NCBI GenBank assembly: GCA_017654855.1 | Contig: CM030338.1 | Coordinates: 558,001-622,000 of the forward strand | Origin: Podospora anserina | Taxonomy: Eukaryota | Length of the DNA stretch: 64,000 bases | Direction of reading: 5' to 3' | Part shown: one piece after another, positions 15,743 through 60,748 of the stretch | Numbering within the stretch: position 1 is the stretch's first letter | How the letters are laid out: each line of letters opens with the position of its first letter | The notes under the pieces: generated by a model | Databases searched by the model: none | What the model was told of the DNA's origin: nothing | What the model saw: only the letters and a program-made list of their open reading frames with translations | Translations under genes and position numbers: made by a program

Positions 15743-16843
15743 TCACAATGCTGCCATTCCTTCCCGGCCCCGAATTTCCAGCTGCTGATCCAAAACACTC
15801 GATACCATCTCCTCCATGCTGTGCCATCGAGTGATGCCGAGCTCCTTCTCGGTACGGCTCGTATCGACAGTGAAAGGCTCGTCGTATGGGCCCTCAATGT
15901 TGACGGGTATGGCGGGATATTTTGTCTTGACAAACTCCACAACATCATCATAGCATGTTGGGTCCCCAACCACCAAGTATTCAGTCACCAACTCTTCCCG
16001 ACCCAACTCCACATCAAGACTTCGCAGCACCGTCAAGCTTACATCACGGACATCCACCATTGACGCAGGCACAACCGGCTTGCCACCAGGGGGGTTGGTG
16101 AGAGTTGCCATGAGATAGGCATTGACGCCGTTTGGCTTGGATGTTTGTTGGGTGAGATCCCTCCCGAGGACAAAGGTCGGATGCAACGTCACTAAGGAGA
16201 ACTGAGGCTCATGAACCCGCATCCATCCAATCGTGGCTCGATGAGCGAGGATTTTGGAGGTTGCGTACTTGGCTCCATGGCCCGCGGGGCCAGACGGGAA
16301 GGACATCTCCGGGTTGATGGCAAGGGTTGGATTGATACCGGCTATTGTTCAAACCAGTCCGGTTTGTCATTCATAATCTGTTTGCGGGACTTTATTTGGA
16401 TTGCTTCGCTTACCTTTGACTTCCAGACCAGGGGTGTTCATGCTGTCCGGGGGCATCAAGGCCAAGATGGACGACATGATGATTACTCTCTTCACGGCCG
16501 GCGTCTCCGCAGCAGCATTTAATATTGCTTCAGTCCCTGCGACAGCGGGTTGCAGATATTCAGTCTTGAAGTCGTCACCTTTGCCTGGTATGGGTGAGGC
16601 GAGATGGAAGATGGCATTGATATCGTTGGACAGAGCGGACCGAATTGCCTCGGCGTTGTCGATGTTGGGGATGACGGCAAAGTCGAGCTTGGAAGCGTGC
16701 TGGGGGAACCGTGCCTTGACCTCCTCAACTTGAGCCTCCCGCCTGACACTCAAGCGAAGTTGGTGGCCCGCCTTGAGGGCATCGAGCACGACTTGAGAGC
16801 CGATGAAGCCGGTGCCGCCGGTGATGAAGATTCGCAACGCCAT
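15743..16843 (-). CDS. NAD(P)-dependent epimerase/aldehyde reductase (extended SDR)
   Basis: ITGGTGFIG, HLASP, YATSK, VDVRDV; intron ~16342-16413. Confidence 0.9.
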
Positions 16844-39293: not shown

Positions 39294-40895
39294 ATGAACG
39301 CAAGCAGCAAATCTAGCAAAGGTGGCCGAGCTACCAAGAAAGCTAGTGTACGGGTCACTTATCACCAGGCAAGAATGAGCGAAAAGGTAGGAGCAAAAGC
39401 CCAATATTTATTGATGTCCTTTTTAAGTTCCCAAAACCCAACTAAGCTCAGCAGTTATCATATTCCACCGTCTACACCTTCCAACTCCACACTAGGAGAG
39501 CAGAAGCCGACCAAGGGATTCAGAATCGAGGAGGGAGGAAGGCGACAGACCCGAACGATCTGATTAAAGCGGCGTTGCAGGATGGGCTCACTGAGGAAAA
39601 ATCTGAGATTGACGATAAACCCGTCCGCAGAAAGCTTAGTGATACCACTGAGCCGCGGTATGTCTGGATGATGAAGATCTGGGAAGCATATGTTGTGGAG
39701 ATCGCTGTGTTGAATTTAGTGCTAACATAAATCAGGTACGCAGCAAAAACTCGAAGCATCAGACCCGTGCGACATGAAAACAGTGAAGCATTTCACCGAG
39801 ACCGTCTCACGGTCAACCAAGTGGCGGTTAGATAAGTATCTGGAAAGGCCAACACTAAAGTCCATACGAGTCAAAATGCGAAGATTCATATTGCAATAGG
39901 AAAGAATAACTAATAAATCCATTCCCAAACCGTCAACGATAGCGTGTGCTATATAAGTATAAAAAAATAGCTCATTTTATATTTCCGCCATCTAATATAA
40001 TAAAGTATATTCAATATGTGCTCAGGTATAAAATTCCTCTGTCGGTAGAGGAAAAAGCACCGACAAACTTGACGATAGAAAACTACACAGCTATAGAAAA
40101 GCATCTCTGGTTGTTTAACCACCATAATTATGTACATGAAGGGAGCCGAGTAGACCAAAGCGCGCTGTTAAACTTACATGCTTACACCAGTGCGAGGTTA
40201 AAGGAAATATATAAAGCGACGTACAAGGTCAGTTTACTTATATAATAAACAGATAGGATATATACTAACTTGTTACAACCCTGGTATAGGACGGTTGTGG
40301 GGCCACGGGAATAAGGGGAGCCAATCACAGTGAAGGCAGAGTGATCAGTGTGATCAGGGCACTGAGCAGACTGAGCAGAGGTGATCAGTGTGATCAGGGC
40401 ACTGAGCAGACTGAGCCGAGGTGATCAGTGGCCTTGGGAGACTGATCACGGCTTGGCACAAGGACTATATATACGGAGGAACTGGCTGGTGTAGATAGAC
40501 AGTTCCGCAGTATGCAATTCAAGCTTGTATTCACGGCATCTTGTGTTTACATCGAGACATCTTGTTGTGCACTGTTTAGCTGCACCGAACCAATTGTCAG
40601 AAGTTACCTTCAACCCGTATCCCTTTCAGAGGTTCTGTACAGGGGTTCGTCACATAACTGCTTATAAGTACGATCTTTTTTATATGGTTATATGGTAAGA
40701 TGGATAACCTGAGATTAAAATATGGTTCAAGAGGGATTTGGCTAAAGATATGTAAAATACTCCAAAGAAGTGAGTCAGACATTTCCATCATTTCTCCTTA
40801 TTTTTAGCGCGTTATTGACGGATTGGTGCAGACCAAAAGATCCTCTGTACGAGAGACTGAAACCCATTCCCCCGCTTTTCGTAAATAGTCTCTTG
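39294..40895 (+). pseudogene. truncated DUF3435 tyrosine recombinase (Starship captain-like)
   Basis: KTVKHFTE..RPTLKSIR..FILQ*ER; HLW..NYVHEGSRVDQSALLNLHAYTSARLKEI; DLFYMVIW*DG*PEIK..KRDLAKDM; PLYERL..PLFVNSLL; RIP-type stops; solo LTR inside an intron; 3' half missing. Confidence 0.7.
40271..40654 (+). mobile_element. solo LTR (crapaud-like family), TSD TAACT
   Basis: TGTTACA..TTCGTCACA; TAACT at 40266-40270 and 40655-40659; internal 40-bp tandem repeats. Confidence 0.9.
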
Positions 40896-41215
40896 TGTTA
40901 GTATAAAAGTGTTGTTAGAAATCCTGCAAACCTAAACAACCTAGCCCAGGTTGGCCCAAGCTCCTTGTGGAGCCAGTTATGGTTATCTAAACAGTAGACC
41001 CCCCCAAAACTAAGCAAAAAGAGACCCTTTTCTATACTCCCTTTAGTAACATCCTCTTTGTCACAGTAGGTAAGGCAGAACACTGAAACAAAGCAAACAG
41101 TATTGCTTAGACCAATTGATTGAATTGCAAGTTGAAGAAGAAAAGAAGGAAAATATCGACAAAGGCTTGCAGGGCAGGGCTTTTGATTCCAGCCGACCGA
41201 GCTTTGACCACCTGT

Positions 41216-41486
41216 TGGCTTGGGGTGCGGCCACAAGCCTAAGGGTATGAATGAGGAAGTGGGGCTCTCGGAGGATTCGGGGGGTTCAGGGGTTATGTAT
41301 ATAAGCTATCTGCTTCTCACATTCTATTTTAGACAAGACATCGACTTCTACTTCTTCAAATTTTGTGCCTTGCACGCGTGCAGGCAATTCTGGCCCTCTG
41401 ATTAGGCCAATCCGGTGCTTATTATATGGCCTGCAAGCCCATAGTGCCTTTTCTTTGTCCTGCGTGAAGTGCGGCCTGCGAGCAAG
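41216..41486 (+). mobile_element. diverged, truncated LTR related to the 46833-58692 element
   Basis: TGGCTTGGGGTGCGGCCACA.. aligns along its length with 46833-47105 with many substitutions. Confidence 0.85.
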
Positions 41487-41759
41487 TGTCACGGTCCAGT
41501 ATCGGCCAATCAGGAGTGGATCGAGGACCGTCTGTAAGTCAACGGTCCACGGTCCCAAGGTCTATATATACGGAGGAACTGGCTGGTGTAGATAGACAGT
41601 TCCGCAGTATGCAATACAAGTCACAATCGTTGGTATCTTAGCTATTGTGATTGAGATAAGCTATTTGTTGTATACTGTTTAGCTGTACCGAACCAGGATT
41701 GTTCAGAAGTGCCTTCAACCAATATCCCTTTCAGAGGTTCTGGATAGGGGTTCGTCACA
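41487..41759 (+). mobile_element. LTR (crapaud-like), short 5' variant
   Basis: TGTCACGG..TATATATACGGAGGAACTGG..GGGGTTCGTCACA. Confidence 0.85.
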
Positions 41760-42182
41760 GAAAGGGATACTGGTTGAAGGCACTTCTGAACAATCCTGGT
41801 TCGGTACAGCTAAACAGTGTACAACAAATGGCTTGTCTCAATCACAACAGTCTAGATACCAACGATTGTGACTTGTATTGCATACTGCGGAACTATCTAT
41901 CTACACCAGCCAGTTCCTCCGTATATATAGACCTTGGGACCGTGAGGTGCTCGCCCTGCTACGGCCCCGATCATCCTTAGCACATTGCATCCTGCAACAT
42001 GCTCGTCGTGCTATGCCTCCGATCACTCTTAGCATCTTGCATCCTGCAGAGTGCTCGTGGACCTTGGTGCCATAGCACTTTTGTCCAACCCTGATTGGCT
42101 GTTCCCTGACTTCCTTAATGATTGGCTGGGGACGTCCTGCGCCCCACATGTGGCGTGGCCTGCTGTTCGGTTAACTGTGACA
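41760..42182 (-). mobile_element. LTR (crapaud-like), inverted and 3'-truncated, fused to the previous LTR
   Basis: Reverse complement of ~41547-41733 followed by a different 5' half ending GTGACA. Confidence 0.85.
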
Positions 42183-43096: not shown

Positions 43097-43546
43097 AACA
43101 CTGAGAGCAGGTAGGCGGTTGCTGTTAACCACCAACTTTGGGGCGCAGAAAGGTTTTATTGCTCGAGGAATTGGACTGCAAAGGAGATTACCTTGATCAA
43201 TCAAGCACTTTGTTTATGGCTGTTGCAACCTACCTATTTTTGACCTTACTTATCGCGTGATTTGACCGTCTTGCAGGCGCCAGTCGACAAATTTGGACCA
43301 ACCCCGCCGACGGGGCGCTTGCTTGCAGAGTGGGGCTCACTCTTTGTTCTCACACGCCTTCTATTCTTGGGGTGCCAAAGTAAAGTCCGTTACGTCCCTG
43401 GGCCGCCAGCTTTCACAATCTTCTCGCCTTGACAAACTTCCAGTCCTCCTTTTTCTTAATCTGGTCAAACTCAACTTCGCATTCCACACGTGACATGGCC
43501 ATATCAAGCTCGCCGTCCGTCAAACTACATCATTCAGAAGCCAGCC

Positions 43547-44404
43547 ATGACCGACTTTGGACCCATCCATGTCGTAGAGCCTCGCGCTCCGCACAACCAC
43601 ACCATAATTCTCCTTCACGGCCGTGGTTGTACCGGCGAAGAATTCGCCGAGGAGCTCTTTGAGTCCAAGCTCTCCACCGGCAAGACACTGCAAGAACACC
43701 TCGGACCCTGGCGCTGGGTCTTCCCGTCGTCGGCTGAGTTGTGGAGCACGGCGTTTGAGGAGGACATGCCGGCGTGGTTTGAGGCGCACTCCCTGACGAA
43801 CCCCACGGCGAGACAAGACTTGCAGATGGCTGGGATCAGGGACTCGGTGCGCTACCTGACCCGACTGCTCGGTCAAGAGGTTGACAGGCTGGGCGGTGGC
43901 TCTGGCAAGGTGGTGCTGGGCGGAATCAGCCAGGGAGGTGCTATCGGGCTGTGGTCTTTGCTCTGTGCGGGTGCCGACGGCGCAGCCGGACGTCTGGGGG
44001 GATTTGTCGGGGCGAGCACTTGGCTCCCGTTCGCTGACGAGCTTGAGCGGCACCTTGGCCGGGAGGCTCAGGCGCAGCAAGACACCATCCGGGCTGCTGA
44101 CACCGGAGAGGTTGACTCTGATGCTTTCGTGGAGGAGATGGCTGGCGCGACACGGGGGACGCTACGGGAGCCGAATGCTTCCCAGCATGGCTTGTTGTCA
44201 GTTCCAGTGTTCCTGGGCCATGGGACGGACGATGCTTATGTGGATGTCAGTTTGGGGCGGCGGGCAGCTGTTGTTCTGGGCAAAATTGGCCTAAGGGTTG
44301 AATGGCGCGAGTATTCAGGGGCAGAGCAGGAAGGACACTGGCTTAAGGAACCGGAGGAGCTGGACGATATCGTACGGTTTCTGGAGTCCATATCAGCCGT
44401 CTAG
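43547..44404 (+). CDS. phospholipase/carboxylesterase (acyl-protein thioesterase-like)
   Basis: LLHGRG, PAWF, GGISQGG, HGTDD, EGHW. Confidence 0.9.
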   Translation: MTDFGPIHVVEPRAPHNHTIILLHGRGCTGEEFAEELFESKLSTGKTLQEHLGPWRWVFPSSAELWSTAFEEDMPAWFEAHSLTNPTARQDLQMAGIRDSVRYLTRLLGQEVDRLGGGSGKVVLGGISQGGAIGLWSLLCAGADGAAGRLGGFVGASTWLPFADELERHLGREAQAQQDTIRAADTGEVDSDAFVEEMAGATRGTLREPNASQHGLLSVPVFLGHGTDDAYVDVSLGRRAAVVLGKIGLRVEWREYSGAEQEGHWLKEPEELDDIVRFLESISAV

Positions 44405-44479: not shown

Positions 44480-46352
44480 ACGTGCGTGATAAGCGAGCCG
44501 AACAGACAAGCGAGCCGAACACTTTCCAACGCAGCGCAACCCTCCGACTTCTTTCACCAACTTTACCACCAATTCGCTATAAATTCACTTCCAACCGAAT
44601 CTCGAATTATTTTAGCCCTCGAAGCTATCAAAAACGACCCAAATCTTAGTCTTCGACGCGCAGCTAAGCTTTACAACGTACCAATTACAACTCTCCATAA
44701 CCGACGCGCTGGCCGGCTTACACGACGCAATATATTAACTAACTTACGTAAGCTTACCGATTTAGAAAAAAAACGATTATTTAATATATTATTAAGCTAT
44801 ATATACGCACATTCCATCCTCGGCTTTCGTATATAAAAAATATAGCCAATCGATTACTACGTAAACGTAACGTGCCTTCTATTAGCGTACGATAGGCTTA
44901 TAACTTCGTTAAACGCTAGCCAGAACTTCGGACGCGTTTTACACGTAAATATAGTTATTAAAGGGTTAAATATAAAGATTTAAAGGTTATTAATAAGTGA
45001 TTTACTTTCGTATAGAATACTAAAGTTAAATATAATATTATAAATAACGATATTTATAACTTCGACGAGATTAGGTTTATAATAAATATTATTTTCGCGA
45101 ATATAATAATTATAATTTTTAATAACTATAATAAAGCGAAACTGGCCCAGCCTAATAACCGTAAATAAGTAACGGTAGTTTAAGAAATTAATATTTTTAA
45201 TTAGGCTATTCGTCTTTTTATTATTTTAACTGTATAATATTACTTTATTAATTAATATATTAAATATAATTTACTATTTATTTAGTATATTATAATTATT
45301 AATAATAATTAAATTATTAATATAATAAGCTTAAATTAAATTAAATACTTTAATTATTATATAATGTCCCGTATAAAAAATAAATATCGGTTATTAATCC
45401 TCGATAGTTACGAAAGCTACTACTCGACTAAATTCAAACACTATTATTAATAAAATAATATTATTACGTTCTATATACCTCTATATTCCTCCTACTTCCT
45501 CTAACTACTTAATATTAATTACTTTAAGCCGCTAAAATAAATATACGGTCGTTAAATCGAGGATTTAATATATATATATATTAATTATATAAATAAATTC
45601 GAATTCCTTTATATTTTCCGCGAAGCCTTTTTCGCCTCTATATTAAAAAAAATATATAGGATAACTTTATAGGTACTAACTTTATATTATATAATTTAAA
45701 AAAAGTACTTTTTAAGCTAAATATAAAGCTTTGTACGTTAATACCTTTAAATTTATAGCCCGGCATTATATAACTTTAATATGTCGAACCCCTGTACAGA
45801 ACCTTTGAAAGGGATACTAGTTAAAGGTAACTTCTAATAATTAGTTCGGTGCAGCTAAATAGTGCACAATAAGATGTCTCAATGTAAATATAAGATACCG
45901 TAAATATAATTGTGAATTGCATACTGCGGAACTGTCTATTTACACTAGCTAGTTCCTCCGTATATATAGACCTTAGGACCGTAAGGTACTTACCTTACTA
46001 TGGCCCCGATCACCCCTAGCACATTGCATCCTGCAACGTGCTTGTCGTGCTATGCCTTTGATTACCCTTAGTATCTTGCATCCTATAGATTACTCGTGAG
46101 CCTTAGCGCCATAGTACTTTTGTCCTGGCCTGATTAGCTTGTTCCCTGGCTTCCTTAATAATTAGCTAGGGGCGACTTACGCCCCACATGTGGCGCGACC
46201 TGCCGTTAGGTTAACTGTAACATTTAAGTCTTTTAAATATTATATAACCCTCGAGAAACTAATTTATAATTAACGCTTATTAAAATTCATATTACTAATT
46301 ATTAAAATAATTCCTTAACTTTAATATTAATTACTATAAACTAGTTTATTAA
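44480..46352 (+). mobile_element. RIP-degraded pogo/Fot1-type DNA transposon, truncated
   Basis: TA|ACGT terminus with tandem AAGCGAGCCGAAC; HTH ESRIILALEAI..SLRRAAKLYNVP.TTL; NFDE motif near 45058; extreme TpA enrichment. Confidence 0.88.
45780..46222 (-). mobile_element. solo LTR (crapaud-like), TSD TTTAA, partly RIP-mutated
   Basis: Homologous to 41760-42182; TTTAA at 45775-45779 and 46223-46227. Confidence 0.88.
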
Positions 46353-46832
46353 TGTTAAAAGGTAAGCCCTGATAGGCCTATAATATAAAACCTATACAAG
46401 GTTGCTGTAAAATACAGCAGTGCGTAAGCGGAAGCGGGAGGATACGACGGCAGTAGCGAAGGAAAGTAAAGCACTGTAATACAATGAGGTATAAGGAATA
46501 AGAATTGCCTTTAGCTTTAGCTTTTAGCTTTAGCTTTAAGCTTTTGCCCTTAAGGAAAGAAAGAGAACTATACTATAAGAGAGAGGAGAGGTCTATATAT
46601 AGGCCTTCGTAGGCCTACTATAGGTCCTGTAGGCCCTAGAAGCCCCTATACTACTTTGGGGTATTTAGTGGGCTTAAGTGGGTTTAGTGTAGACTTATGG
46701 AAATCCATAGAACCTTCGGTAGCAGAGGTGCCCTGTAAATTACACTATTATAGCAACTTACTACGTAAACCTGTAGCTACTTTAAAAGGTTCTAGTATCC
46801 ATTAACTAAGCCTTAAGCTACAGTAGCCCTAT
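46353..46832. mobile_element. RIP-degraded repeat (probable LTR element) that received the large insertion; continues after 58692
   Basis: TGTTA start, TATA-like motif, TpA-rich; similar decayed sequence at 58693-58742 and 59236-59784. Confidence 0.5.
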
Positions 46833-47195
46833 TGGTTTGGGGTGCGGCCACAGGCCTGAGAGTATGAGTAAGGAAGCGGGGCTCTCAGAGGACTCAGGGG
46901 TTCAGGGGTCATGTATATAAGCGGTCTGCTTCGGACATTCTATTTTAGACAGGACATCGACTTTTATTCTTTTCTTCGTATTTTGTGCCTTGCACGCGTG
47001 CAGGCAATTCTGGCCCTCTGATCAGGCCAATCCGGTGCTTATTATGTGGCCTGCGAGCCCATAGTGTCTTTTCTTTGTCCTACGTGAAGTGCGGCCTGCG
47101 AGCGAGTCACTGTCACGCAGGTGTGTTCATTCTGAGACCTGTTGAGGGTATATTTGTGGTGTTGTGGTTGTTTTGTGTGTTTTCTCACCATTTCA
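46833..47195 (+). repeat. 5' LTR
   Basis: Identical by eye to 58330-58692; TATATAA at ~46914; palindrome TGCACGCGTGCA at 46991. Confidence 0.95.
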
Positions 47196-47774
47196 AATGG
47201 AGGTCGTGCCCGGGTTGAGCAAAGCTCAGGGTCCAAACTGGACTCACAAGCCCTGGGTACTGGAGGAAGTGCGAAGCCACGAACGACAACAAGCACCGAC
47301 AACTTCACTGAACCCCGCGAGGTTCAACGGAAACGATTCTTCTCCGTCTGATCGGATAAAGCTCTTTCATCATCGACCAAACTCTAAACTTTCTGCCCGC
47401 GAGTGGAGAGTCAAGTGTGTGGTCCGGATGGGACCGGGAAGTGAACTAAGAGCATTGGTTGAGACTAGCTCGTTAGTGGACCTTATCTCCGCGTCAACTA
47501 TCAAAGTCCTCTCCTATCTTTGGTTAGGAGGAATCCTCCTGGTGTGTTGTTTAGCGATGGTGGACAATCGTGGGGATTTCCGGGTCAGTTTGACTCAGGA
47601 CATCGGGAACCCAAAAGCAAGGAGACGAGGACACTTTCCCTCTGATCTGGGTAGATGTAACTCATGCCCACATACTGGAGTTGCAAGGGACAACCGTCTT
47701 CATATTTCCAACAACATACACAAGGAAAAGCCATACCACCAACGCAAACGCAACAGCAATCATCGAGTATCGAC

Positions 47775-50700
47775 ATGTCCGACAATGTCCCACCCATCGC
47801 TTCGGCTAGCCTTCCCGGCGACAACCAGGGGTATCAAGCTCCTACGGCTCGTTCCGTGGTAGAAGTGGCCATTCCGGCGGCCAGGTCCCCGGAATCATCA
47901 CCATTCGTCCTCTCCCCGGCTGCGAACCGCGCTCACCCTGAAGATGCTGAGACCCCTCGCCCCTTTCTGATCAAGGTGGCCCGACTGCAAGGCCCAACGC
48001 TCCTGACGTGCCAGGTGGACCTCGTACCCACCCAAATCCTGCTGCTTGGAATCATACTGCGCCTCCCACTCGGCATGCCGGATATCCCGCTCCTCTTCCT
48101 GGGTTCGCGCATCAATTCCAGCAACCCGGATACCCATATCCCATAGGAGCTTACCCCGACTATCGCCACTTCCAGGGGTCCCCTACGTCTGATCATCCAA
48201 CCCCCTATCCCATGGTGCCTATGTATTTTCCTCAGCGTGAATTCCCTGATCCGAAGAAAGTCGGTTTTAAGAGCAACTTCAAGGGAAGCACTTTACGGAA
48301 TATCTGGAGCGTTTCGAGAATGCCTGTGAAGAGTACCATGTCGTGGAATTTACCTCTCGCGTTCGCAAGTTCAAATCCTGGTGTGACTTCGATGTGGGAA
48401 AACAGATTGACGAATGTGTAGACCTACCTACACCCACCGATACTTGGCCTGTCCTGGTTGTCCGCCTTAAACGCCTCTTTAAGATCTATGACCCCCGACA
48501 AGACGAAGATATCCACAGGGAGTTGGATGACTTCTACGCCAAGGTTATCCCTGAAGGTGTGGGCGAGTTAAGGAAGGTTGTTTTTGACCACTCCAAACTG
48601 CTCTCTCGAGTGCCGACCGGGGAGAAAGAGGCAGTAAGAGCCAGGGTTGCCAGCCGCTTTTGGATGAAATTCTCCGAGTCAATGAGGATGACCCTTATCA
48701 ACCGAGGAGGATCCGAACGTCGTTTAAGATCCATGAATTTTATTACCTGGAGCGATTGGATTAATGATGTGATCGAAGATGGGTATGACGTGGGAGGAAG
48801 AATCTACAAGGAGGACAAATCAACCATTGCACCCTCCCCTGCTGCCTCTGATCAGGCGGCCGAGGTGCTCGACCAGTACATGGCGGTTAACGCTATGGTA
48901 GACAGAGAGATGGCACTGCAGCATTTGAGGGCGAATATCTACGGTGGTTTCTCTGCACCGGGAAACGGCAAATCTGGGATAATGAGGACCCGCGTTCAAC
49001 ACCTAGAAGACCAGGCACCTTACTCCCTGGATTTTGGCATTGGCCCTAATGGGGAAATGGATTCGTCTTTCAATACCTTCCCCATTGTTGATACTAAGAC
49101 CCAGTTCGGAAGATCAGGGGGGCAGTACCGCGATAGCCCTCCCCCACCAAGAAGGTGCTTCTGGTGCGGCAAGACTGGCCATTACGCTAAGTCGACGGAG
49201 TGTCCGAAGAAGGAGTATGATGAGGCGTGGGGACTGTGCCATACTGAAGGAGGCAGAGTGTGTATCGGTAAGAAGGAGTGGCCGGAGAGTGAAAAAGCGT
49301 GGCTTGATCAAGAGGATGTGAGGAAGGCGCAGCGTGAAGGGAAGGTTGGCGACCTGGTTCGTGCTGCAATTTCGTTGAAACCAGAACTGAATAGGGCCTA
49401 TGAAGCTTACACGAAATGGGCTGAGCACTGGGAAGCTCGTGAGGGCAAGGGATACAGGCCCGAGGTCTCTCTGATCAGAGGGAGGGAGCAGACAGCTACT
49501 CAGATGGCCAGGGCTATGGATGTCAGGTTAAACAGGCTTCATGGGTACTCCAAACCCTACGTACCGTTTAACGAGAACTCAGCCAGTGACTACATTACTA
49601 GGAATGCCTTGCAACGCTGCTCAGCAGAGAAGTGGTCGCCTAGGAGCATTCTGAAGCGCTCTGATGATGCCCCAGTGGTCGTCTGCAACCAAGAGGTGGA
49701 AGTGGGGGTAGGCGCGCAAGGAGCGAAGAGAGTAAGGATCGAGGATCTGCCGAAAGAGGATATGGATGACCCAGCCTCAGCCGAAAATCCGAAAGTGGTA
49801 CTCACCCCCGCGCAAGAGAAGCCAAAGGTAGTTGAGGAGGGAGTCTCGTCCGATCAGGGAAATGGAGTCCGGAGTGGCTCAAGGTTGCCTGATGGTGAGG
49901 CAGAGGACTCTGGGGATTACATTGCCGAGAAAGCCAAAAAGTACGCCTGTGGTCAGACTAAGTTCACACTGGAAGAGCATTGTAGGGTTTCACCCACATT
50001 TGCTTACCGGTTGATGGATTACGTGAAGAGTGTGGCCGAGGATGCTGAGGTGATCGAGTGGCGTGGATCTTCCAAGAGTACCCCGGATGGAAAGAGAGAA
50101 GTCCCACAGAAGGGGGAGGCCTTGCCGTCAACGGTTCGGACGAATTTTCAGACGGCTGGACACAGCAAGACTCCTCCGTCTGATCAGAGGAAGACTGTCC
50201 CTGCTTTGTACGGGATCACGGCGGATGGTGAGTATGGTGTGGTCGAGGGAGGCATCTGGGAGAAGATCATCGAAGGCAAGGTCCAACCGGGTGACAGCCC
50301 AGAAGAGCGATTGCGGACTCTGCTGTCTACGCCCATTGGCCGGCTTTCCGGTAGTGAGCGAACTCTCCTGGGAGCCGTCACTCGAACCCACAACGTCCCA
50401 TCGCTATATTGTAACTTCGTCTCACCAACTTCAGAGAAGGTGCTGGCAATGTTGGACACAGGCTCGGAGTGCAACCTGATCAGTAGGGCTGTAGCTGAGA
50501 GGTTCTGTCTACCGATGGTGTCGACGAACCTACAGTCTAAAGGCCTTCATGGAGATCCGGTTGCGTTTATAGGTGAGACTCAGGCTCCAGTAGTGCTGGC
50601 TGGGGTTCCAATTTTGTGTCATTTCTTCGTTATTGATAACACTGAGGCTCTGGGTTTCCATGACCTGCTATTGGGCATCCGTTCTTCACGGATACGAGCC

Positions 50701-50855
50701 TCACCCTTGATTTTATGAAGGGCTGTATGATTAGCGCGAATATGTTGTATGGGGGAAAGCTGATTAAGGCCCACGTGGTAAAAAAGGAGGTGATTGATAA
50801 GATGAAGGCGGAATATAACGGCAGGGATCGAGGTAATGCCTCTCCTGCCAGCTGA
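47775..50855 (+). CDS. gag: Gag with CCHC zinc knuckle + aspartic protease (frameshifts in homopolymers)
   Basis: MSDNVPP start; CFWCGKTGHYAKSTEC; AMLDTGSECNLI; DLLLGI; single-base gaps ~47963, ~48283, ~50678; in-frame TGA 50853-50855. Confidence 0.85.
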
Positions 50856-50864
50856 CCCTTACAG

Positions 50865-53800
50865 GTGTTTAAGGGATTGGTTAATGAAGGAGTACCTGTC
50901 CCTGAGTGGGTAACGGAGGAGCTGGAGGAAGGGGATGAAGTGATTGGGGGACTGAATGAAGGAGCTGGGCGTTCTTTGCTTAATTTTATTTTGGGGGAGT
51001 CAAGTTTGCCGTTATTAAATTATTGCCTAGCGTCTGATATTATTTCTTATAAAAACAAAGAAAAGGGGGATGTTAGGAGCAAGGGAGGAAAGAATATTAG
51101 TGATCAGAGGGAAGGAAAGAAGGGAGGTATAAGGGACTGCCAGAAAGAGAAGTCTTTGTTTCAGCCTGGAAGAGTGGAAATTACGACAAGAACTCTAACT
51201 TCGGACGAAATCTCAGGAAAGAACGACCGCCACCACCGACCTTCATAACAGGTCTGCATTTAGTACCGTCGCCACCACTGCCAAAGACATCGCCGCCGTC
51301 TGATCAGAGGACTAGCAGGATAACCCCATTTAAGCCCGATATGGCATCCTTATGCTTGGGGATATTTAACTGGTCCCTCACTCAACCAGGTCAGCGCAGC
51401 CTCTTCACTACACAACCACATAGACGTCATCCACCTCCGCCCCCTTCTGAGAAGAAAAACAACATGAAGACCAGCCTGATCACCACTTTTGAACAGGCCT
51501 GGCCAACGCCTGCGGATATTGTTACTACTGCTACGATGTACAAGAGGGTAGATAAGAAGGTGAAGCCGGTTGATAATGCTGGGTCAGATGGTAGCACTCC
51601 TGAAGGAGATCCGAACTGGAAAGTAAGGAGATGGGCGGCAGTCAAGGAATCCCTACAATACGGCTCAGAATTCGACGATATTGTGGTCCCTAAGTTTTCT
51701 GAAATGATCAGAGGGTCACGCCTCACTCCAGAACGCTTAGCCGATCTGATCAGACAAACCACCGACATTTTGACAGATCAGGAGGTTAAAGTGTTTACGG
51801 CAATCTTATTCGCAAGGGAGGCTGCACTGGCATGGGACTTCACCGAGTGTGGACAGATCCTTGAAGAAGTCTTCCCTGCTCAACACATCAGGACTATCCC
51901 TCACAAAGCGTGGCAAAGCAAGTCTATTCCGATCCCGAAGCCACTCGTGGGGAAAGTCATCGATCTCCTTAGGGAACGAATCAAGAGAAATATTATTGAG
52001 GAAGCGCATGGTCCCTACCGCAACAACTGGTTCCTAGTAAAGAAAAAGGATGGTGGCCTCCGTCTGATCAACGATGCCCAGAGATACAATAAGGTTACGC
52101 AACGAGATGCCTTTATCCCACCAAGCACTGAGGAGTTCAGCGAGGACTTTGCAGGGTGCCTTATTACCTCCTTGCTTGACTTCTTCTCCGGATACGACCA
52201 AGTCAAATTAGCCCTGACGAGCCGAGACCTCACTACCTTCGCGACACCTATCGGCCTATTCAGGATGTGTACCCTACCTCAAGGAGCTACCAACTCAGTG
52301 GCCCAGTTCCAAAGAGCCGTGACCAGAGTCTTTCAAGATCTCATCCCACAGGTGTGTCGGCCATACCTGGACGATATCGCAGTGAAAGGGCCAAGGTGGG
52401 ACTACAATGGTGAAGAAGAAAGGCCAGGAGTTAGGAAGTGGGTCCTGGAGCACTTGAAGAATATCGACGCAGTCTTGCTCAACTGTGAGCTTGCAGGAGC
52501 CACAATTGCAGCCGTGAAATCCCTTTGGTGCAGACGGGAAGCTGTTATCCTTGGCTATTCCTGTACACCGGACGGGCGCCTCCTGATCAGACAAAGATAG
52601 TGAAGATAAGGGAATGGCGAACTTGCCACAGTCTTAAGGATGTTCGCGCCTTCCTGGGGATCACCGGCTACTATCGGCTATGGGTACCTCTCTTCAATCT
52701 GATCGCAGTTCCGCTGTATTTCTTGATGAGGAAGGACACGAGATGGGAATGGACGGAAGCTCAACAGGGTGCGATGGAGTGGCTTGCCTTTCTGATCACA
52801 GAGGCACCGTGTCTGGCTTCTCTGACGTTTGATGACGACCGTTTCGGTAGAATCTTTGTTATTTTTGATGCAAGCTTGACGGGGTGGGGAGCGGTGATTG
52901 AACAAGTAGGACCTGATGGAAAACGGCACCCTTGTCGGTTTGAGAGTGGTATTTGGAGCCCGGCTGAACAGAGGTATGATGCCACCAAGAGGGAGTTGAG
53001 AGGACTGTTGTATACTTTGAGGAGATTTAGAAGGTATCTTTTCGGGGTACACTTTACGGTGGAAACGGACGCTCAAGTGGTAGTCCACCAAGTCCAGGGG
53101 GCGGCTAGTGACGTTCCCGGCGCCTTGATGATGAGATGGCTGGGATGGATTAGACTTTTCGACTTCACAATTGTTCACATCCCTGGGAGTAAGAACCTTG
53201 TGGCAGACGCACTATCGAGAAAGCCACCTGGCCCCTCTGATCTGAGGGAGAAGGAGTTAGAGCCAGACATTGATGATGAGGTTGACGCAAGGATCTGGAA
53301 GAACGATATCCAGGAAGTAAGTGTCTGGCGGGTGAATATCAGGAAGAAGAAAAAGGAAGTTATTGGGCAAGGCCCCTACTTGAATGGACTGTGGTCTCCT
53401 CACTCCCATGCTATCGCCGAGTTCCTCGCGACTGGTGCGGAGCCAAGGGCTAAGACGAGGTTTGACGTTCAGACCATCAAGAATGACGCCCTGAAAATGA
53501 TTCTCGAAGACGGAGTTTTGTTTCTTAAGCCAAACAAAGGAGGCTTTCCCCCCAGGAGAATTGTTGACCCTCTGATCGAGCGGGAAAGAGTCTTCAATGC
53601 GTGTCACAACGAGATGGGCCACAAAGGACGGGAAGCTACCTATGCCCGAGTAGTAGAAAACTACTACTGGAAGGGTATGTACGCTGACGTCGAGGCTTGG
53701 ATCAAGACATGTAGGCAATGTCAACAATGGAGCCCGAAGCGTTGGGAGGACTGGCACTTATATACTGAGCCTTTAGCTACCCCATTTGCGAAGTGGCATT

Positions 53801-55004
53801 TAGACGTTCAGTTCTTACCAACGGCTTCGGGAGAAAAAGCCTACCTTCTGGAAGCGAGGGATGACTTGACTGGGTATCCAGAAGCGAAGGTCTTGAGCTC
53901 AGGCAAGGCTTCTGGGGTTGAGAACTTTATCCTGCACGATATCATCCTCAGATGGGGTCACCCTCTGATCGTGGTGGTGGACGGCGGATCAGAATTTAGG
54001 AAGGAAGCTGCTGAGATTTTAGAGAGGCTAGGAGTTCTTCGGGTGGTGGTCTCACCTTACAACGCAAGAGCAAATGGAGTGACGGAGTCTGGTCACATCC
54101 CAATTGCATCGATGCTGGCAAAAATGACGGATGGGACGGGGAAGAAGTGGAAGCAGTGGCTCCCTTATGTGTTGTTTGCTGATAGGACCACGACACGAGG
54201 TATTCATGGGTACAGTGCTTTCTATCTGGCACATGGGTTTAACCCCATTACGCCGATCGAAAAGGACGTACCGTCATGGAGAGTCGTCCAGTGGGAAAAG
54301 ATTGGCTTCGACAGATCAGGGAGACACTGGAAGGAGAGAGCGACTATGGATTTAATAGAGGCAAGGGCGAGACTATTGAAATCCCAGGAGATGAATCTGA
54401 CTCTGGTGGCTGAGAGGGTTGGCATGGCAAGACAGAAAGCCGCGGCAAGAAAGAACAGAAAAGGGATTCGCAGCATTAGGCCTGAGAATAGCATGATCAG
54501 AAGGGGGGACTTGGTGTTGGTGTATAAAATGGATAGAAAGTTGGATATGAGTGTGGTAAGGAAGCTACAGTACCGCTGGGACGGCCCTTTCAGAGTGAGG
54601 AAGGTCGAACCAGGCAACACTTGCTACTTCCTGGAGACACTGGATGGGGTGCCATTGCGAGCTTCTTACACGCCAAACAGGGTAAAGAAGTTTTTAGGTT
54701 GGAAGACGTGTATGTAGATGAAGAGGATACGGACATGCAGCCAGGACTAGGGAGAGTTGAGCAGGTGCCTGGGAATGGAGTGAAGGAAGGCGTGGATATG
54801 GTGGAAGATGAGGATGAAGAAGAAGAGATAGTGGAAGAAACACCAGGGAGAATGATGACCAGGGGGAAGACTTGGATGGAACGGAAGAATGCTGAGGTGC
54901 AGAAGAGATTTGAGAAGGGCAAAAGTATAGAGGTGGTCCTGAAGAAGGGTAGACCAGAGGACTTCTTGGGTGATCAGGGGGAGACGATGACGAAGGCGTT
55001 GTAG
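50865..55004 (+). CDS. pol: Pol: reverse transcriptase, RNase H, integrase (frameshifts in homopolymers)
   Basis: YKRVDKKVKPV, LDFFSGYDQ, LPQGATNS, YLDD; FDASLTGWG, VADALSR; HNEMGH..CRQC, HLD..VDGGSEF..TE; WDGPF; gaps ~51110, ~52581, ~54693. Confidence 0.92.
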
Positions 55005-55225
55005 TTGTTGTTTTTCTTTAAGAGGGTACTGAAGCTTGTGTTGTGAGAACAGAGCTGTGGGAGCTGTCTGTTCTCAAAGGGAGGAAAGACACTAAGGGAG
55101 GTGATTGATTGGGGTGAAGATCATCGCATTGAATTTTTAATTTTTTCTTTTTCTTTTCCTGTCATTTCTTTTTCCGATTCACTCCTCTCTTTATGCCCCT
55201 TCCTCTGATCTGAGGAAGTGGAAGA

Positions 55226-56297
55226 CTATTCTTTTTCTTTCTTCTTCTCCTTCTTCTTATCCATCTGCTGTTTCCTAAGCTCTTTGTACTCAGCCCGCTG
55301 TTCTTCCCACTCCTGGTCCCAATCGACTTCCTCACCACCAGGAATCAAGCTCACGGCACCACGATCCAACTTCGATAACCCACCACTACCAAGATCCTTG
55401 AAGTAAGGGCTGTCCTCATCAACACTGGACCATGAGCAATGGATACCCTTATGCCAGCAGTTCCCGCATTTCCAATCGAGGTCCTCTCTTCCCACACAAC
55501 CGAAGTATGGCCACATCACCTTAGTTTTGGTCCCATCGGGGGGAACGTCACGAAAAGACCGGCGATAGCTCTGATCGCACTCATCACATGGATTGGCATG
55601 ACTGAATCCAACATGTTAGTGTCAGGCTAAGTCTGATCAGGGGGGCGGCACTTACAGTAACCCGGTGGCCTGGACAAATAAGCCTTTAGAGCGATGAGCC
55701 CGCTTGACGATTTCGAAGAGCCAGCGCCCGAAGAACCACCCATTGGACCGTTCGACGAAAATCCGCCTAACGGAACCGGTCGACAACGCCTTGGAGATGT
55801 AATCAGTGACAGTCTTGTCCGCACCAATGTCCTTGAAAAGTAGCTGCCACTCTTTCTTACCCCCTTCTTCGTCGGATCAGGGAGGAACCACTCAAGGTAG
55901 AGGGAGCAGCCACGTGTTTGGGATCTAGAGGGGAAATCTTGAGGTACCAAAGAGCAGCCTGATGGGGGAGAGAAATGTCGTGATAAGCATTAGCACCTTT
56001 GGGCATGGTGGAGTCGTGAACGCAAGTAGGACGCCGAACCCAGACGTGCCTCTTGTAAGCAACGCCTTGATTGTTGGGAGCACGGGTGAGGTCGGTGGGA
56101 CGATGAGTGAGGGTAGCAAGCAAAGGCTCTTGAGTAGGGTCTATGGCGACCTCGGACCAGTCGTACGCAGCAAGGTCAAGGACTCCCTCGACCTGACTGG
56201 GAAGTTTTTTGGCGAAAGAGGTCGTGGATACCTGGGTAGTAAGGTCGTCGACCGCCTGATCGGACGAAGCAGCAGGTTTCCTCAAAGAAGAGGCCAT
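55226..56297 (-). CDS. antisense accessory gene: Cys-rich DUF3716-like protein, one intron
   Basis: TATAAATA (minus) at 56367-56374; intron 55602-55655 GTAAGT..CTAAC..CAG; spliced GLFVQATGLLHANPCDEC..PYFGCV..CGNCWHKGIHCS; Lys-rich tail; needs three single-base homopolymer corrections. Confidence 0.68.
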
Positions 56298-56635
56298 TGG
56301 GAGGAAGCGGTTAATAAGTACTGAAAAAGATGAGGAGTGAGCGGGAATGAGGAGAACTGGCATGGGTATTTATAACCAGAGGATAGGACGGTGCGACTGG
56401 TCCTACAGACCTCTACAGGAGGAGACTCATCAGAGCGCTCTTTCCTCCTCAAACGGCTTACGCAACTATCTGATGATCTTGCCTTACAAGCCAGGCAGAC
56501 AACAGAGAACAAAGACTCACCGAAGACCTTCTTCCCTCTTTAACTCTCCATTCCAAAAAATTCCTCACTTCCTCTCGACAACCCTCTGATCACAGATCAC
56601 ACCACACACTACTCCCTCTCAATTCTCACAGAACG

Positions 56636-58114
56636 ATGTCATCAACGCTTTTTACAAAGTCCATTCACGACATGTCATGGGAAGAATTCACCGCCACCAA
56701 GAAATTCGGCCCTCCCAATGATCTCGTTAAAGAGATTATTCGGAAAGCGCGCCTTCAAGGTATCGACAGGGTCTATGGCTCTGGTCCCCCGCGCGGCATC
56801 TTCCTTCCCCAAGGCGATGACACTCTCTGGCCTGTTCGTTTTGGCCTTAACCTGGTTGCCGACCCAGGAGATCATGTTGTGGGAAGGCGGCCCGACTGGA
56901 TCAACACCACTTTCGTGGAGCAGTTTTCGATTGACACTATCAAATATCTTTTTCCTGGCTTGAGAATAACGACCCCCCCTGATCGGACTCACATCTACGG
57001 TATCCATGTAGCTTCCCTCACTTGCGCTATGTATGACCTTCAAGGTCAACTAGAGGCCAAGCAGTGGCTCACTAGCTCGGTCCTTACCTGCGCTCTTCGG
57101 TACTCTCTTCAGGGAATCCTCGAGCGTTGTATATGGATCCCTGGAGAGCCTCTGAACCCTGTTATGATGAAGTCGTCGATGCGCTTTTTCCTGCCTAACG
57201 ACAACCACAACGCCTTTGACCGACGATACTGGGTCCTCCCCATTCATGTCAACAACGGAAGCCACTGGGCAGTGGGCATCTACGACGTTGCTACTGGCAT
57301 TTTGGTTTATATGGACTCGTCGAAGGATTGGAAGGGGTATCAAGCTAATGCTATTTCTTGCCTGGTATCTTACATCCGTCACGCTTTCCACTGCAGCCTT
57401 GACGTGAAAGTGAGGAGGCCAGCTTGCGGTGAACAGGGCGGGGCGTGGGAATGTGGTCTTTGGGTCTTGGAGCACTGCCGTACCTACTTTCAGGGAGGTG
57501 TTTCGTACGGTGAAGAGGAGGATTTAACGGTAGTAAAGGCTTGGAGAGGAGATCGTTGCTACAGAGACTGCAAGACCGTGGGCGTTGCGGGGAAGAAGAT
57601 GATGAGGTTGTGGATGGCTTATGTGAAAAGGTCTTTGGGTTGTGAGCCTGATCAGAGGGTGCGTGATAAGAAATGGAGGAGGAGGGGCCTGGAGGACTTG
57701 ATGGACGCGGAAGGATTCAACCTGCCAAGCACCCTCTCGTCTCCTTTCAAGTCTCCACCAATTCCCCGGTTTGCTTCCCTCCCTGGTTCTCCGTTAGCTT
57801 TGGTTACTACTGTTGAGGGAGATGAGTGCGTCGTGGGTCTTCCCTCTGATCATGAAGGGTTTGGACCAAGTAGCGTGTCGAGCAACTCTCAACGACCAAG
57901 CAGGGTAGCAACCCCCTTTGGGTTCCGCACTCCTGTGACAATGGACTCGCCGCTCCTCTCTGGGCCTGTAATTGCCCGTCCCCTACTTATGACCACTCAG
58001 GATCGCCAACAACACACCTTTCGCCTGATCACACACCTGGTTTCATGGGATGGGAGTGGGCTCCTGGAGTTCCTCAGAGACGAAGGGAGGAGGTCGTTAG
58101 GTCACCAGTTGTGA
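56636..58114 (+). CDS. Ulp1/SENP-like cysteine protease (peptidase C48) inside the retrotransposon
   Basis: QWLTS; WVLPIHVNNGSHWAV (His); YMDS (Asp); EQGGAWECGLWV (Gln, Cys); intronless 492-aa ORF. Confidence 0.88.
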   Translation: MSSTLFTKSIHDMSWEEFTATKKFGPPNDLVKEIIRKARLQGIDRVYGSGPPRGIFLPQGDDTLWPVRFGLNLVADPGDHVVGRRPDWINTTFVEQFSIDTIKYLFPGLRITTPPDRTHIYGIHVASLTCAMYDLQGQLEAKQWLTSSVLTCALRYSLQGILERCIWIPGEPLNPVMMKSSMRFFLPNDNHNAFDRRYWVLPIHVNNGSHWAVGIYDVATGILVYMDSSKDWKGYQANAISCLVSYIRHAFHCSLDVKVRRPACGEQGGAWECGLWVLEHCRTYFQGGVSYGEEEDLTVVKAWRGDRCYRDCKTVGVAGKKMMRLWMAYVKRSLGCEPDQRVRDKKWRRRGLEDLMDAEGFNLPSTLSSPFKSPPIPRFASLPGSPLALVTTVEGDECVVGLPSDHEGFGPSSVSSNSQRPSRVATPFGFRTPVTMDSPLLSGPVIARPLLMTTQDRQQHTFRLITHLVSWDGSGLLEFLRDEGRRSLGHQL

Positions 58115-58329
58115 TGGCTCGACAGGGACGGAGGTATGCTCTGAGATCCGAGAAGTGAGGGTGCTCTTCTCTCTGATCAAGGGAGAATGGATAAAGGGAT
58201 AGCAGGATTACATCGTTTTCCCTTCTTTCTGCTGAACGATATTTTCTTTTTTTTTTGGTTTGTAAGGGATTTTTTTCTTGTGTACGCATTTGCCCACTGG
58301 TTTGTAGTGGTCAAATGCGAAGGGAGGTT

Positions 58330-58692
58330 TGGTTTGGGGTGCGGCCACAGGCCTGAGAGTATGAGTAAGGAAGCGGGGCTCTCAGAGGACTCAGGGGTTC
58401 AGGGGTCATGTATATAAGCGGTCTGCTTCGGACATTCTATTTTAGACAGGACATCGACTTTTATTCTTTTCTTCGTATTTTGTGCCTTGCACGCGTGCAG
58501 GCAATTCTGGCCCTCTGATCAGGCCAATCCGGTGCTTATTATGTGGCCTGCGAGCCCATAGTGTCTTTTCTTTGTCCTACGTGAAGTGCGGCCTGCGAGC
58601 GAGTCACTGTCACGCAGGTGTGTTCATTCTGAGACCTGTTGAGGGTATATTTGTGGTGTTGTGGTTGTTTTGTGTGTTTTCTCACCATTTCA
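58330..58692 (+). repeat. 3' LTR
   Basis: Direct repeat of 46833-47195. Confidence 0.95.
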
Positions 58693-58742
58693 CTATAAGC
58701 CTTTAAGGGTCCTTTATAAAGAATATTTTAAAGGGATCTAAG

Positions 58743-59230
58743 TATTATAACCTTAGTATAGGATAGTTATGGGGCTATAGGAATAAAGGGCTAATCGGGA
58801 GAACGTATAGGGAAGCTAATTATAGTGAAGGTAGAGTAATTAATATAATTAGGGCACTAAGCAAACTAAGTAGAGTAATTAATATAATTAAAGTACTAAG
58901 TAAACTAAGTAAAGGTAATTAGTGTAATTAAGGCACTAAGCAGATTAAGTAGAGGTAATTAGTGTGATTAGGGCACTGAGCAGACTAAGCCGAGGTAATC
59001 AGTGGCCTTAGGAGACTAATTACGGCTTGGTATAAGGACTATATATACGGAGAAACTAGCTAGTATAGATAAACAGTTCCGTAATATATAATTTAGCTTA
59101 TATTTACGGTATTTAGTGTTTATATTGAGATATTTTATTGTGCACTATTTAGCTGCACCGAACCAGGATTATTTAGAAGTTATTTTTAATTAGTATTCCT
59201 TTTAGAGGTTCTGGATAGGGGTTCGTCACA
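58743..59230 (+). mobile_element. RIP-mutated solo LTR (same variant as 40271-40654, more tandem units), TSD CTAAG
   Basis: C>T/G>A version of 40271-40654; CTAAG at 58738-58742 and 59231-59235. Confidence 0.88.
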
Positions 59231-59784: not shown

Positions 59785-60203
59785 TGTCACAGACTAACCA
59801 TATAGCAAGGCAGAGTGGGGACTGCAGCAGGCCGTAGTGACCAGTCAAGTAACAGATAACAGCGGGGCTGCAGGATAGTGGGGCGCTCACCTCCTGGCAA
59901 AGGTAAGCCGGCCCGCCAGGAGCGCTGGGTGAGCGAGGTGAGCCAGGATGGATCACCAGGAGCGCTTGGTGATCGAGGTGATCCAGGTACGGAGGTACCT
60001 AGAGGATTAAGGTCTATATATACGGAGGAACTGGCCGGTGTAAATAGACAGTTCCGCAGTATGCAATTCAGCTTGTATTTACGGTATCTAGTGTTTACAT
60101 TAAAGATATCTTATTGTGCACTGTTTAGCTACACCGAACTAATTATTAGAAGTTACCTTCAACCAGTATCCCTTTCAGAGGTTCTGTACAGGGGTTCGTT
60201 ATA
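59785..60203 (+). mobile_element. solo LTR (crapaud-like, another 5' variant), TSD TGTGG
   Basis: TGTCACAG start, conserved TATATATACGGAGGAACTGG 3' half; TGTGG on both sides. Confidence 0.88.
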
Positions 60204-60280
60204 TGTGGGTAGATGGCTTGGGTAGTTTAAACTTACCTGGGCCATATCCATATGTGGTCCACTTCCTTGTTATCCAACCT

Positions 60281-60748
60281 ACCGGTTGAAAGCGAACTTC
60301 TAGATAATGGATCGGTGTAGCTAAACAGTGCACAACAAGATATCTCGATGTAAACACTCAGGATACCGTGAATACAAACTGTGATTACATACTACGGAAC
60401 TATCTACAAGCTATCTAGTTCCTCCATATATATAGACCTAATGCCAAGACCTGGATCATTCTGTTTCTTCGTGGATCGTGACTGACTCCCAAGGATCATT
60501 CATGATCTCCTTATGCCCTGGATGATCCACTCCCTATTGGTCTATTCTCCTCTCCTCTGATTGGTCACCGCGTCTCTACTTCCCAATTAGTTGTTCTTTT
60601 CGGGTGTCTACATCATATTCGTAACACATTGAGACATATTGTTGTGTACTACTTAGCTGCACCGATCTATTATCTAGAAGTTCGCCTTTAACCGGTATCC
60701 CTTTTAAAGGTTTTGGACAGGGGATCGTCACAACAAGGGATCGTCACA
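60281..60748. mobile_element. diverged LTR fragments in both orientations
   Basis: Minus-strand copy ~60281-60626 abutting a plus-strand 3' end ~60627-60732; GGGATCGTCACA duplicated. Confidence 0.7.

Follow-up and report, generated by a model that had tools for sequence, protein, structure and literature searches.

The DNA analyzed here, which we call the window, is a 64,000-nucleotide stretch of the Podospora anserina genome (assembly GCA_017654855.1, contig CM030338.1, positions 558,001 to 622,000 of the forward strand). Positions 46833-58692 of the window are occupied by an 11,860-bp long terminal repeat (LTR) retrotransposon, whose two 363-bp LTRs are 100% identical, end in TG...CA and are flanked on both sides by a duplication of CTAT. 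Pfam domains in this copy come in the order protease, reverse transcriptase (RT), RNase H and integrase, which is the Ty3/gypsy gene order, and pol is 50-57% identical to relatives carrying PF00078, PF17919, PF17921 and PF00665. The element, of the Ty3/gypsy type, was inserted recently into the genome of a filamentous ascomycete, and its clade also carries an antisense DUF3716 gene and a Ulp1-like gene of the SUMO-protease type. From one LTR to the other, in coding and non-coding sequence alike, the element repeats a short word with dyad symmetry built on CTGATC/GATCAG, and related elements do the same with words of their own. This suggests that the dispersed dyad is a tag by which some factor recognizes the element's own nucleic acid.

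The original prediction, made by eye, had described a palindromic 16-mer throughout the element, with about 35 full or partial matches. The enrichment is borne out, but the 16-mer is a consensus only: CCCTCTGATCAGAGGG has no exact copy in the window, and about half of the sites in the element carry a single arm. When two mismatches are allowed there are four matches, all in the element (49467, 50176, 51296 and 53233), compared with a mean of 0.06 in 100 shuffles; two of them agree with the consensus at 15 of 16 positions, and those at 50176 and 51296 at 14/16. Each of the 24 coordinates named in that prediction holds a GATC center with at least one partial arm. The core of the signal is shorter, CTGATC/GATCAG, and an unbiased k-mer scan of the element places CTGATC, TCTGATC and TCTGATCA at the top for k = 6, 7 and 8. 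CTGATC occurs 31 times on the plus strand and 21 times on the minus strand, where 2.5 are expected per strand. Distinct core sites number 41 in the 11,860 bp of the element and 27 in the 52,141 bp around it, so that they are 6.7-fold denser in the element, and mean agreement with the 16-mer is 11.2/16 for sites inside and 8.7/16 for sites outside. All 11 copies of CTGATCAG lie within the element (dinucleotide-shuffled windows have a mean of 1.36 and at most 5), as do 33 of the 37 copies of TCTGATC on both strands, leaving 4 outside (shuffle mean 10.6, largest 18). Host sequence in the other 52 kb shows no excess, with 21 core sites once the array of a neighboring repeat, called X and described below, is set aside.

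The distribution of the sites ignores coding. They are found in the LTRs, the leader, gag-protease, RT, RNase H-integrase (RH-IN), the spacers, the antisense gene and the Ulp1-like open reading frame (ORF), at 2.5-4.7 per kb, with no site in the 107-bp spacer2. The scatter across reading frames that had been proposed is also seen: of 31 ORF sites, 15 have the G of GATC in codon phase 0, 13 in phase 2 and 3 in phase 1, the rare phase being the one in which CTGATC would make a TGA stop. In synonymous-codon shuffles of five ORF pieces, none of 1000 reached the observed 21 copies of CTGATC (mean 4.4, maximum 11) or 8 copies of CTGATCAG (mean 0.8). Gaps between sites are more even than random (coefficient of variation 0.55 versus 0.96, P = 0.0002), averaging 287 bp, and the largest measures 669 bp where 1231 bp is expected. 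Residues encoded at motif sites in RH-IN (10 sites, 23 residues) have average conservation (identity 0.50 versus 0.51), and no protein cost of the sites is detectable there.

To place the motif in its family, we scanned metagenome contigs with a pol alignment and obtained 80 loci, numbered with the prefix L. The five closest, L001 to L005, of which L001 and L002 are near-identical, behave likewise, with words of their own, at a density similar to or above that of the window element. L004 (pol identity 46%) carries CTGATCAG 40 times against 0.45 expected, and 63 copies of TGATCA in 12.8 kb, with C at position -1 in 47/63 and G at +1 in 51/63. L005 (41%) has 26 copies of CTGATCAG; its 41 TGATCA all lie between 4278 and 16196, its LTR copies are at 4232-4358 and 16150-16276, and its 4,231-bp flank has 0 CTGATC, GATCAG or TGATCA. 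The word of L003 (52%) is TCCGATCGGA, with GATCGGA present 31 times, and that of L001/L002 (54%) is CCCTCTG-NN-CAGAGGG, where TCTG-NN-CAGA occurs 18 times with 10 different central dinucleotides; in L001 the center is self-complementary at only 2/18 sites (GC). These excesses survive synonymous shuffling in four relatives (0/500 each), and spacing is even in 5/5 elements tested (P 0.0002 to 0.03; relatives P 0.005-0.03).

An exact-dyad comparison covered the 58 loci of at least 2.5 kb. Here repeated copies of CTGATCAG are restricted to the window element, L004 and L005, and only L003, L019 and L020 have CCGATCGG at least three times, L005 having two copies. CTG-NN-CAG is in clear excess in L001/L002 (23 versus 3.6 expected), also in L004 and L005, and in the window element (14 versus 3.0). 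The unit shared across the clade is a dyad of C-Y-G, two bases and C-R-G, with outer arms that are pyrimidine-rich on one side and purine-rich on the other. The words of the closest relatives, at 52-57% identity, differ from that of the window element; L004 and L005, at 41-46% in pol, share its CTGATCAG. The change from TCTGATCAGA to TCCGATCGGA between families affects both arms at once. Most sites are lineage-specific, and at some positions, for example columns 232, 859 and 1231 of the pol alignment, a site is present in several elements despite the differing word. PSDQRE is encoded by CCC TCT GAC CAG AGG GAG in L001, and its counterpart in L003, PSDRIK, by CCC TCC GAT CGG ATA AAG; at one shared place the word is shifted by one base, reading DPLIER in the window and DSDQER in L004. 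This shift, the synonymous shuffles and the use of three phases all support the earlier claim that selection, or another directed process, acts on nucleic acid and not on protein.

Dispersed words are found in more distant loci as well. L012 (302-9461) contains 13 copies of a near-palindrome, tcttCGTGAGCC-C-GGCTCAcgaaga, over 9.8 kb, 12 of them in one orientation; L047 and L060 have (G)AAGCGAA(A), with a strand bias; L026 and L037 have CGTACG, a palindrome present 17 times in the distant L026 against 0.5 expected; L074-L076 and L079 have CTCGC-TTAG-GCGAG; and L068 and L069 have TTCG-GCAG-CGAA. No dispersed family word was found in L010, L013 and L058.

Two accessory genes accompany the motif in its closest relatives. 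L001-L005 all have, 3' of pol, an ORF of 560-690 residues with a peptidase C48 match that can be aligned to the Ulp1-like ORF of the window (BLASTP E = 1e-22 to L001 and 3e-17 to L005) and, on the opposite strand between pol and this ORF, a DUF3716 gene. The original prediction had treated both as cargo; since they occupy the same place in all five closest relatives, they are genes of the family and not cargo. The C48 match scores 26.5-33.8 bits in L003, L004 and L005, H263-W264, Q320 and C326-G327 are invariant in the alignment, the Asp position is D in 4/5 sequences and N in L001, and a profile of the family matches yeast Ulp1 (1euv) with E = 1e-12. By these sequence features the ORF is assigned to peptidase C48 (Ulp1/SENP). 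On the L004 contig the gene order is DUF3716, Ulp1-like, gag, pol, so that this contig is either a circular permutation or spans two tandem copies.

The DUF3716 gene of the window is matched by tblastn only (E 5.7e-11). It is interrupted, apparently by a short segment that contains a CTAAC box near 55633, and its Cys-rich part appears in a three-frame reading. Among the loci scanned, tblastn matches to DUF3716 occur only in the window element, L001-L005 and L019, with none on the 3.2-kb contig of L020. The L005 ORF scores 35.8 bits against a cut-off of 22 bits for PF12511, and 47/47 aligned relatives match this family. Six cysteines are invariant, in the arrangement CX2C-X44-C-X10-CX2C-X8-C; the pattern CX2C...C...CX2C...C resembles Zn2Cys6, but with 44 residues in place of the 6 found in Gal4. 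A structure model of the L005 protein (L005:12934-13800, minus strand; m38ee1855cf45) is confident (pLDDT 89.7). In the ESM Atlas, all clusters retrieved were of DUF3716 from Ascomycota, and ten longer family members contain no informative extra domain.

The features of the element and of its surroundings are collected in the table.

Table. Features of the window discussed in the text (window coordinates)
Feature	Position	Strand	Remarks
Dyad-motif array	47014..58526	.	41 sites, core CTGATC and/or GATCAG
Exact CTGATCAG	starts 47018, 48848, 49471, 50180, 50476, 51300, 51746, 52583, 55633, 57648, 58515		
Two best full dyads	49467..49482; 53233-53248	.	15/16 each; CTCTCTGATCAGAGGG; CCCTCTGATCTGAGGG
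5' LTR	46833..47195	+	363 bp; exact identity with 58330-58692; TATATAA ~46915; motif site 47014-47029
3' LTR	58330..58692	+	100% match to 5' LTR; motif site 58511-58526
Target-site duplication CTAT	46829..46832; second copy 58693-58696	.	read off the flanks
Primer-binding-site-like TGG... stretch	47198..47220	+	putative; 2 bases past the 5' LTR
ORF1, gag-like and aspartic protease	47146..50780	+	split over several frames in this copy
pol: RT, RNase H, integrase zinc domain	50862..54717	+	Pfam RVT_1, RT_RNaseH_2, Integrase_H2C2; tblastn with relatives
Antisense DUF3716-family gene	55391..56369	-	Cys-rich C-terminal part; tblastn with antisense ORFs of L005, L001 and L003 and with P0130
Ulp1-like (peptidase C48) ORF	56477..58114	+	Pfam 18.0 bits, below the 20.7 cut-off; conserved in the family
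Truncated older LTR of the element's family	41215..41487	+	89% identity; motif altered to CTGATTAG
LTR-like repeat of another family, X	40273..40657	+	TG...CA; CCAAT and TATA boxes
~200-bp module	40460-40655, 41557-41757, 41760-41935, 45779-45975, 59034-59230, 60009-60199, 60280-60462		

Within ORF1, weak Pfam matches to zf-CCHC_6 (a zinc knuckle) and Asp_protease_2 span 48271-50718, tblastn with the ORF1 of relatives aligns to 48277-50780, and a Pfam search of the N-terminal parts of the relatives' ORF1 gave nothing besides the protease. Pfam places RT at 51104-52600, and RNase H together with the zinc domain of integrase at 52489-54717; the rve core of integrase has no match at E<=0.01 in this copy. 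The closest proteins in a collection of 5.8 billion are 50-57% identical, and those with a named source come from Paecilomyces, Podospora and Penicillium.

Compared with relatives, this copy changes frame at no fewer than three places: near 50670-50680, somewhere from 51104 to 51248, and at 52576/52582; its pol runs through three frames. The last change coincides with a motif site, where shifting by -1 would restore the spacing seen in relatives; the RT-to-RNase H change (-1, 52576-52590) falls exactly on a CTGATCAG site (CGC CTC/C CTG ATC AG), and may be an error, a mutation or a programmed shift. Contigs from four public runs deviate from the window by 1-2 nt at, among other places, 47725, 47959, 54690, 55538, 55553, 55859 and 55901, seven differences that all lie in homopolymers. 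The frame breaks that could be compared with these runs coincide with such homopolymer differences, and several of them are therefore likely to be assembly errors or private to the window copy. The element is present in at least 20 runs of 9 studies, with a contig depth corresponding to about 5 copies in one run (~520 versus ~110 in flanking contigs) and to one copy in another. In two runs whose RNA nature is only guessed, no splice joints were seen, and the intron mentioned in the original prediction finds no confirmation. The copy of the one-copy run, under a second organism label (run X11, window 47530-54174), differs by ten G-to-A changes and one T-to-C; 8/10 of the G-to-A changes are at TpG, the context of repeat-induced point mutation, and the changes look like light, one-strand mutation of this kind.

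The flanks of the element are AT-rich (GC 0.32-0.35 at 44-47 kb) and crowded with degraded repeats, and two of these repeats bear on the motif. Just upstream of its TATA box, the X LTR contains a 40-bp tandem repeat (40336-40430) with TGATCAG twice per unit; six TGATCA(G) words are packed into some 110 bp (40336-40450). This is the position of a DNA-level control element, which fits an action on DNA near the promoter. A degraded copy of X, AT-rich and altered by transitions, lies just 3' of the element (58745-59230), and where the intact array at 40336-40450 has TGATCAG the degraded one at 58827-58994 reads TAATTAG/TAATTAA. The truncated older LTR of the element's own family likewise differs mostly by transitions and has lost the word, so that both bear out the expectation that repeat-induced point mutation erases the motif; the 3' 200-bp module of X follows this LTR. 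The module, about 200 bp long and starting at a TATATATACGG box, occurs at least seven times in both orientations, once as a head-to-head pair (41548-41944), and looks like a small mobile or recombining unit. Between the repeat clusters lies a host gene for a phospholipase/carboxylesterase (43460-44404; Pfam E = 3.5e-26).

What reads the word, and in which nucleic acid, has to be judged from several features together. An 8-bp palindrome is too short to form a stable hairpin by itself, and folding predictions show no difference in local RNA structure between the 41 sites and 300 control places (minimum free energy -17.8 versus -16.9, p = 0.16; pairing 0.48 versus 0.50, p = 0.34), which speaks against the local RNA hairpin offered earlier as one option. 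One-armed sites run both ways (20 versus 10 in the window element, 21 versus 33 in L004 and 14 versus 23 in L005, none significant). Given a short dyad in two families, the lack of a local fold and half-sites in both directions, a protein dimer on duplex DNA is the simplest reader. That both arms shift together, and that the center is free in L001, is as predicted if a dimer reads half-sites. The symmetric change of word between close families makes it most likely that the reader is encoded by the element, and the even cover of the full length points to a function that acts locally along it.

There is a precedent for such an arrangement in VANC proteins, which are encoded by transposable elements and act sequence-specifically on their own family; related VANCs have different targets, and these targets form repeats (PMC5735166). 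We therefore lean, with somewhat less than even confidence, toward an array of duplex-DNA sites for a dimeric, probably element-encoded factor that is anti-silencing or activating in the manner of VANC. In this model the word Y-C-Y-G-N-N-C-R-G-R, in the window (CCCT)CTGATCAG(AGGG), would be kept about every 290 bp in coding and non-coding sequence and bound on double-stranded DNA by a sequence-specific protein, as a dimer with one arm per subunit. The reader would most likely be encoded by the element and co-evolve with the word, and the Cys-rich DUF3716 protein may be put forward as a candidate, although its confident model gives no hint of DNA binding. The purpose would be to mark the whole of the element's DNA so that an activity acting in trans could maintain transcription and avert chromatin silencing, with the Ulp1-like protease as a candidate for that activity. 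The most specific version, in which a barcode every 200-600 bp is read by DUF3716 and a SUMO-type protease is thereby brought to element chromatin or cDNA to defeat silencing, is improbable in all its parts together. The dimeric DNA-binding protein was already suggested in the original prediction and is our preference too, and we infer it, as we do the duplex target, the identity of the reader and the purpose.

Several observations pull the other way. Binding, dimerization and a chromatin effect are at this point predictions. About half of the sites are one-armed, and a strict dimer model has no need of them. TCTGATC leans to the plus strand in the window element (19 versus 6, p = 0.015), and some distant relatives have strand-specific words: L012 a 25-29-nt hairpin word (12 plus, 1 minus) and L047 AGCGAA (51 plus, 16 minus). 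Both point to a single-strand (RNA) reading in their families, which could hold in the window element too. Because the RNA of an LTR element also contains every part of it, U3 among them, location cannot tell DNA from RNA. The TGATCA(G) words of the X LTR fit a host factor as well as a factor of the element. As for the candidate reader, the whole DUF3716 model has no match in the PDB by Foldseek at E<=0.001 and a best Z of 2.1 in a wide VIA-align search, a profile search of the PDB gave 0 matches, and among 47 DUF3716 members there is no zinc-cluster (Zn_clus) or other DNA-binding Pfam at E<=1, except DM in 2/47. No DUF1985 domain, the VANC family, was found in any ORF scanned by Pfam. The link between motif and accessory genes is, moreover, confounded with phylogeny, as the carriers are the closest relatives.

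The reading that competes most directly is a signal in RNA: palindromes would pair between two genomic RNAs, or opposite half-sites with each other, or the Gag zinc knuckle would bind them, giving dimerization or packaging that prefers the family. The element replicates through RNA, its words are self-complementary, the runs guessed to be RNA contain it as a single unspliced 11.5-kb contig, and the strand biases of L012, L047 and TCTGATC given above point the same way. Short palindromes are active in the dimerization of Ty1 and retroviral RNA, and the nucleocapsid of murine leukemia virus favors Py-Py-Py-G words such as UCUG. Known signals for dimerization and packaging, however, lie in the 5' leader and are not spread over the genome, whereas the sites here extend over 11.5 kb with no excess of local structure. 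The self-complementary centers that pairing would use are present at only 2/18 sites in L001, so that two 4-bp core arms would flank a mismatch if the outer arms did not pair as well, and half-sites occur in both orientations, with the bias of the 7-mer reversed in L005 (8 versus 28). We regard an RNA signal as unlikely. A host DNA-binding protein, an activator or a nucleosome-displacing factor whose sites have been recruited by several retrotransposon families, would explain why an unrelated-looking X LTR has six such words upstream of its TATA box and why elements only 41-46% identical in pol share CTGATCAG. The closest relatives, at 52-57%, nevertheless use TCCGATCGGA and CCCTCTG-NN-CAGAGGG, which is easier to understand with a fast-evolving factor of the element; host genes of the other 52 kb have no excess, and sites every 290 bp in coding sequence would be unusual for an enhancer, all of which makes this explanation quite doubtful.

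Short palindromes are insertion targets of some gypsy-like elements in Drosophila. The word could be a landing pad: if the integration machinery, or a tether, recognized it, new insertions would be directed into resident copies of the family or to places beside them. The copy does sit in a region rich in transposons and in AT; the degraded TGATCAG array (58827-58994) is 135-300 bp away, and an older LTR of the element's family 5.3 kb away. Its target duplication is CTAT and not the center of the word, self-integration would be a hazard for an element that carries so many copies of its own target, and even spacing is not predicted; we consider landing pads very unlikely. We find it hardest to believe that the motif has no function and is a by-product of codon or amino-acid usage, of mutational bias in reverse transcription or of internal duplication. 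Some sites do encode conserved peptides (PDQ at the RT/RNase H junction, PSDQRE), and motif residues have average conservation. Yet synonymous shuffles never reach the observed counts in the window element or in four relatives, sites are found outside coding sequence and in the antisense gene as well, their spacing is even, variants change symmetrically, and the element has no long internal repeats apart from its LTRs.

A tag read as duplex DNA by a factor of the element, the reading we prefer, has partial counterparts among known systems. VANC, whose protein family is DUF1985 (10.1101/2024.09.27.615353), and the VANDAL elements offer a short word that is specific to the family and differs between related families, an element protein as the proposed reader, and repeats of the word near control regions, comparable to the X LTR array (PMC5735166). 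VANDALs are described there as Mutator-like DNA transposons of Arabidopsis whose targets are tandem repeats in non-coding locations (PMC5735166), unlike the window element, a fungal retrotransposon whose word is a dyad spread evenly through coding sequence. Retroviral and Ty dimerization and packaging signals are likewise short palindromes on the RNA of retroelements and show family specificity, but they number one or a few in a structured 5' leader as compared with 41 sites throughout the window element. Bacterial DNA uptake sequences and Chi are short words, dense in genes in several frames and in spacers, that mark DNA as self for a protein; they mark whole chromosomes, whereas the dyad marks one family of mobile elements in a eukaryotic genome.

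The accessory genes have parallels of their own. Ulp1 domains are described in Ginger1 and Mutator-like elements (PMC2836005), where, as in the window element, an Ulp1-type cysteine protease travels on a mobile element with a gypsy-type integrase or a transposase; there it is fused to the DNA transposase, while here it is a separate ORF 3' of pol accompanied by an antisense DUF3716 gene. Ulp1 domains on mobile elements were otherwise found in the literature only in DNA transposons. REP9-1 and REP9-2 of Zymoseptoria tritici, DUF3716 genes carried by a DNA transposon of the IS3EU type (PMC8232023), provide another case in which a mobile element of a fungus has DUF3716 as an accessory gene; the element class is different, and the relevant passages report no motif array. 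Palindromic motifs near retrotransposons have been reported in Magnaporthe in connection with MoISW2 (PMC11481914), and may resemble the dyad. Literature searches gave no description of dense, even, family-specific dyads in the coding sequence of retrotransposons, the letters of the PMC11481914 motif not having been compared. There is a fair chance that this is a system of a new kind, and self-recognition with anti-silencing as in the most specific version above would, if true, be the first such case described in a retrotransposon or a fungus.

Even without a mechanism, the words help to recognize and classify elements and to date their decay, as transitions destroy the word (41.2 kb and 58.8 kb). 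If the proposed reading is true, mobile elements would carry a dense and evolvable address label inside their own genes, and codon choice and protein sequence would be constrained along the whole element, a layer of selection seldom considered for retrotransposons. DUF3716, which is widespread in ascomycetes and present in DNA transposons as well, would then gain a function open to testing. Finally, the proposed reading would offer a handle on how fungal retrotransposons stay active despite repeat-induced point mutation and heterochromatin, in the form of an 8-16-bp word, two conserved accessory genes and a set of natural variants.

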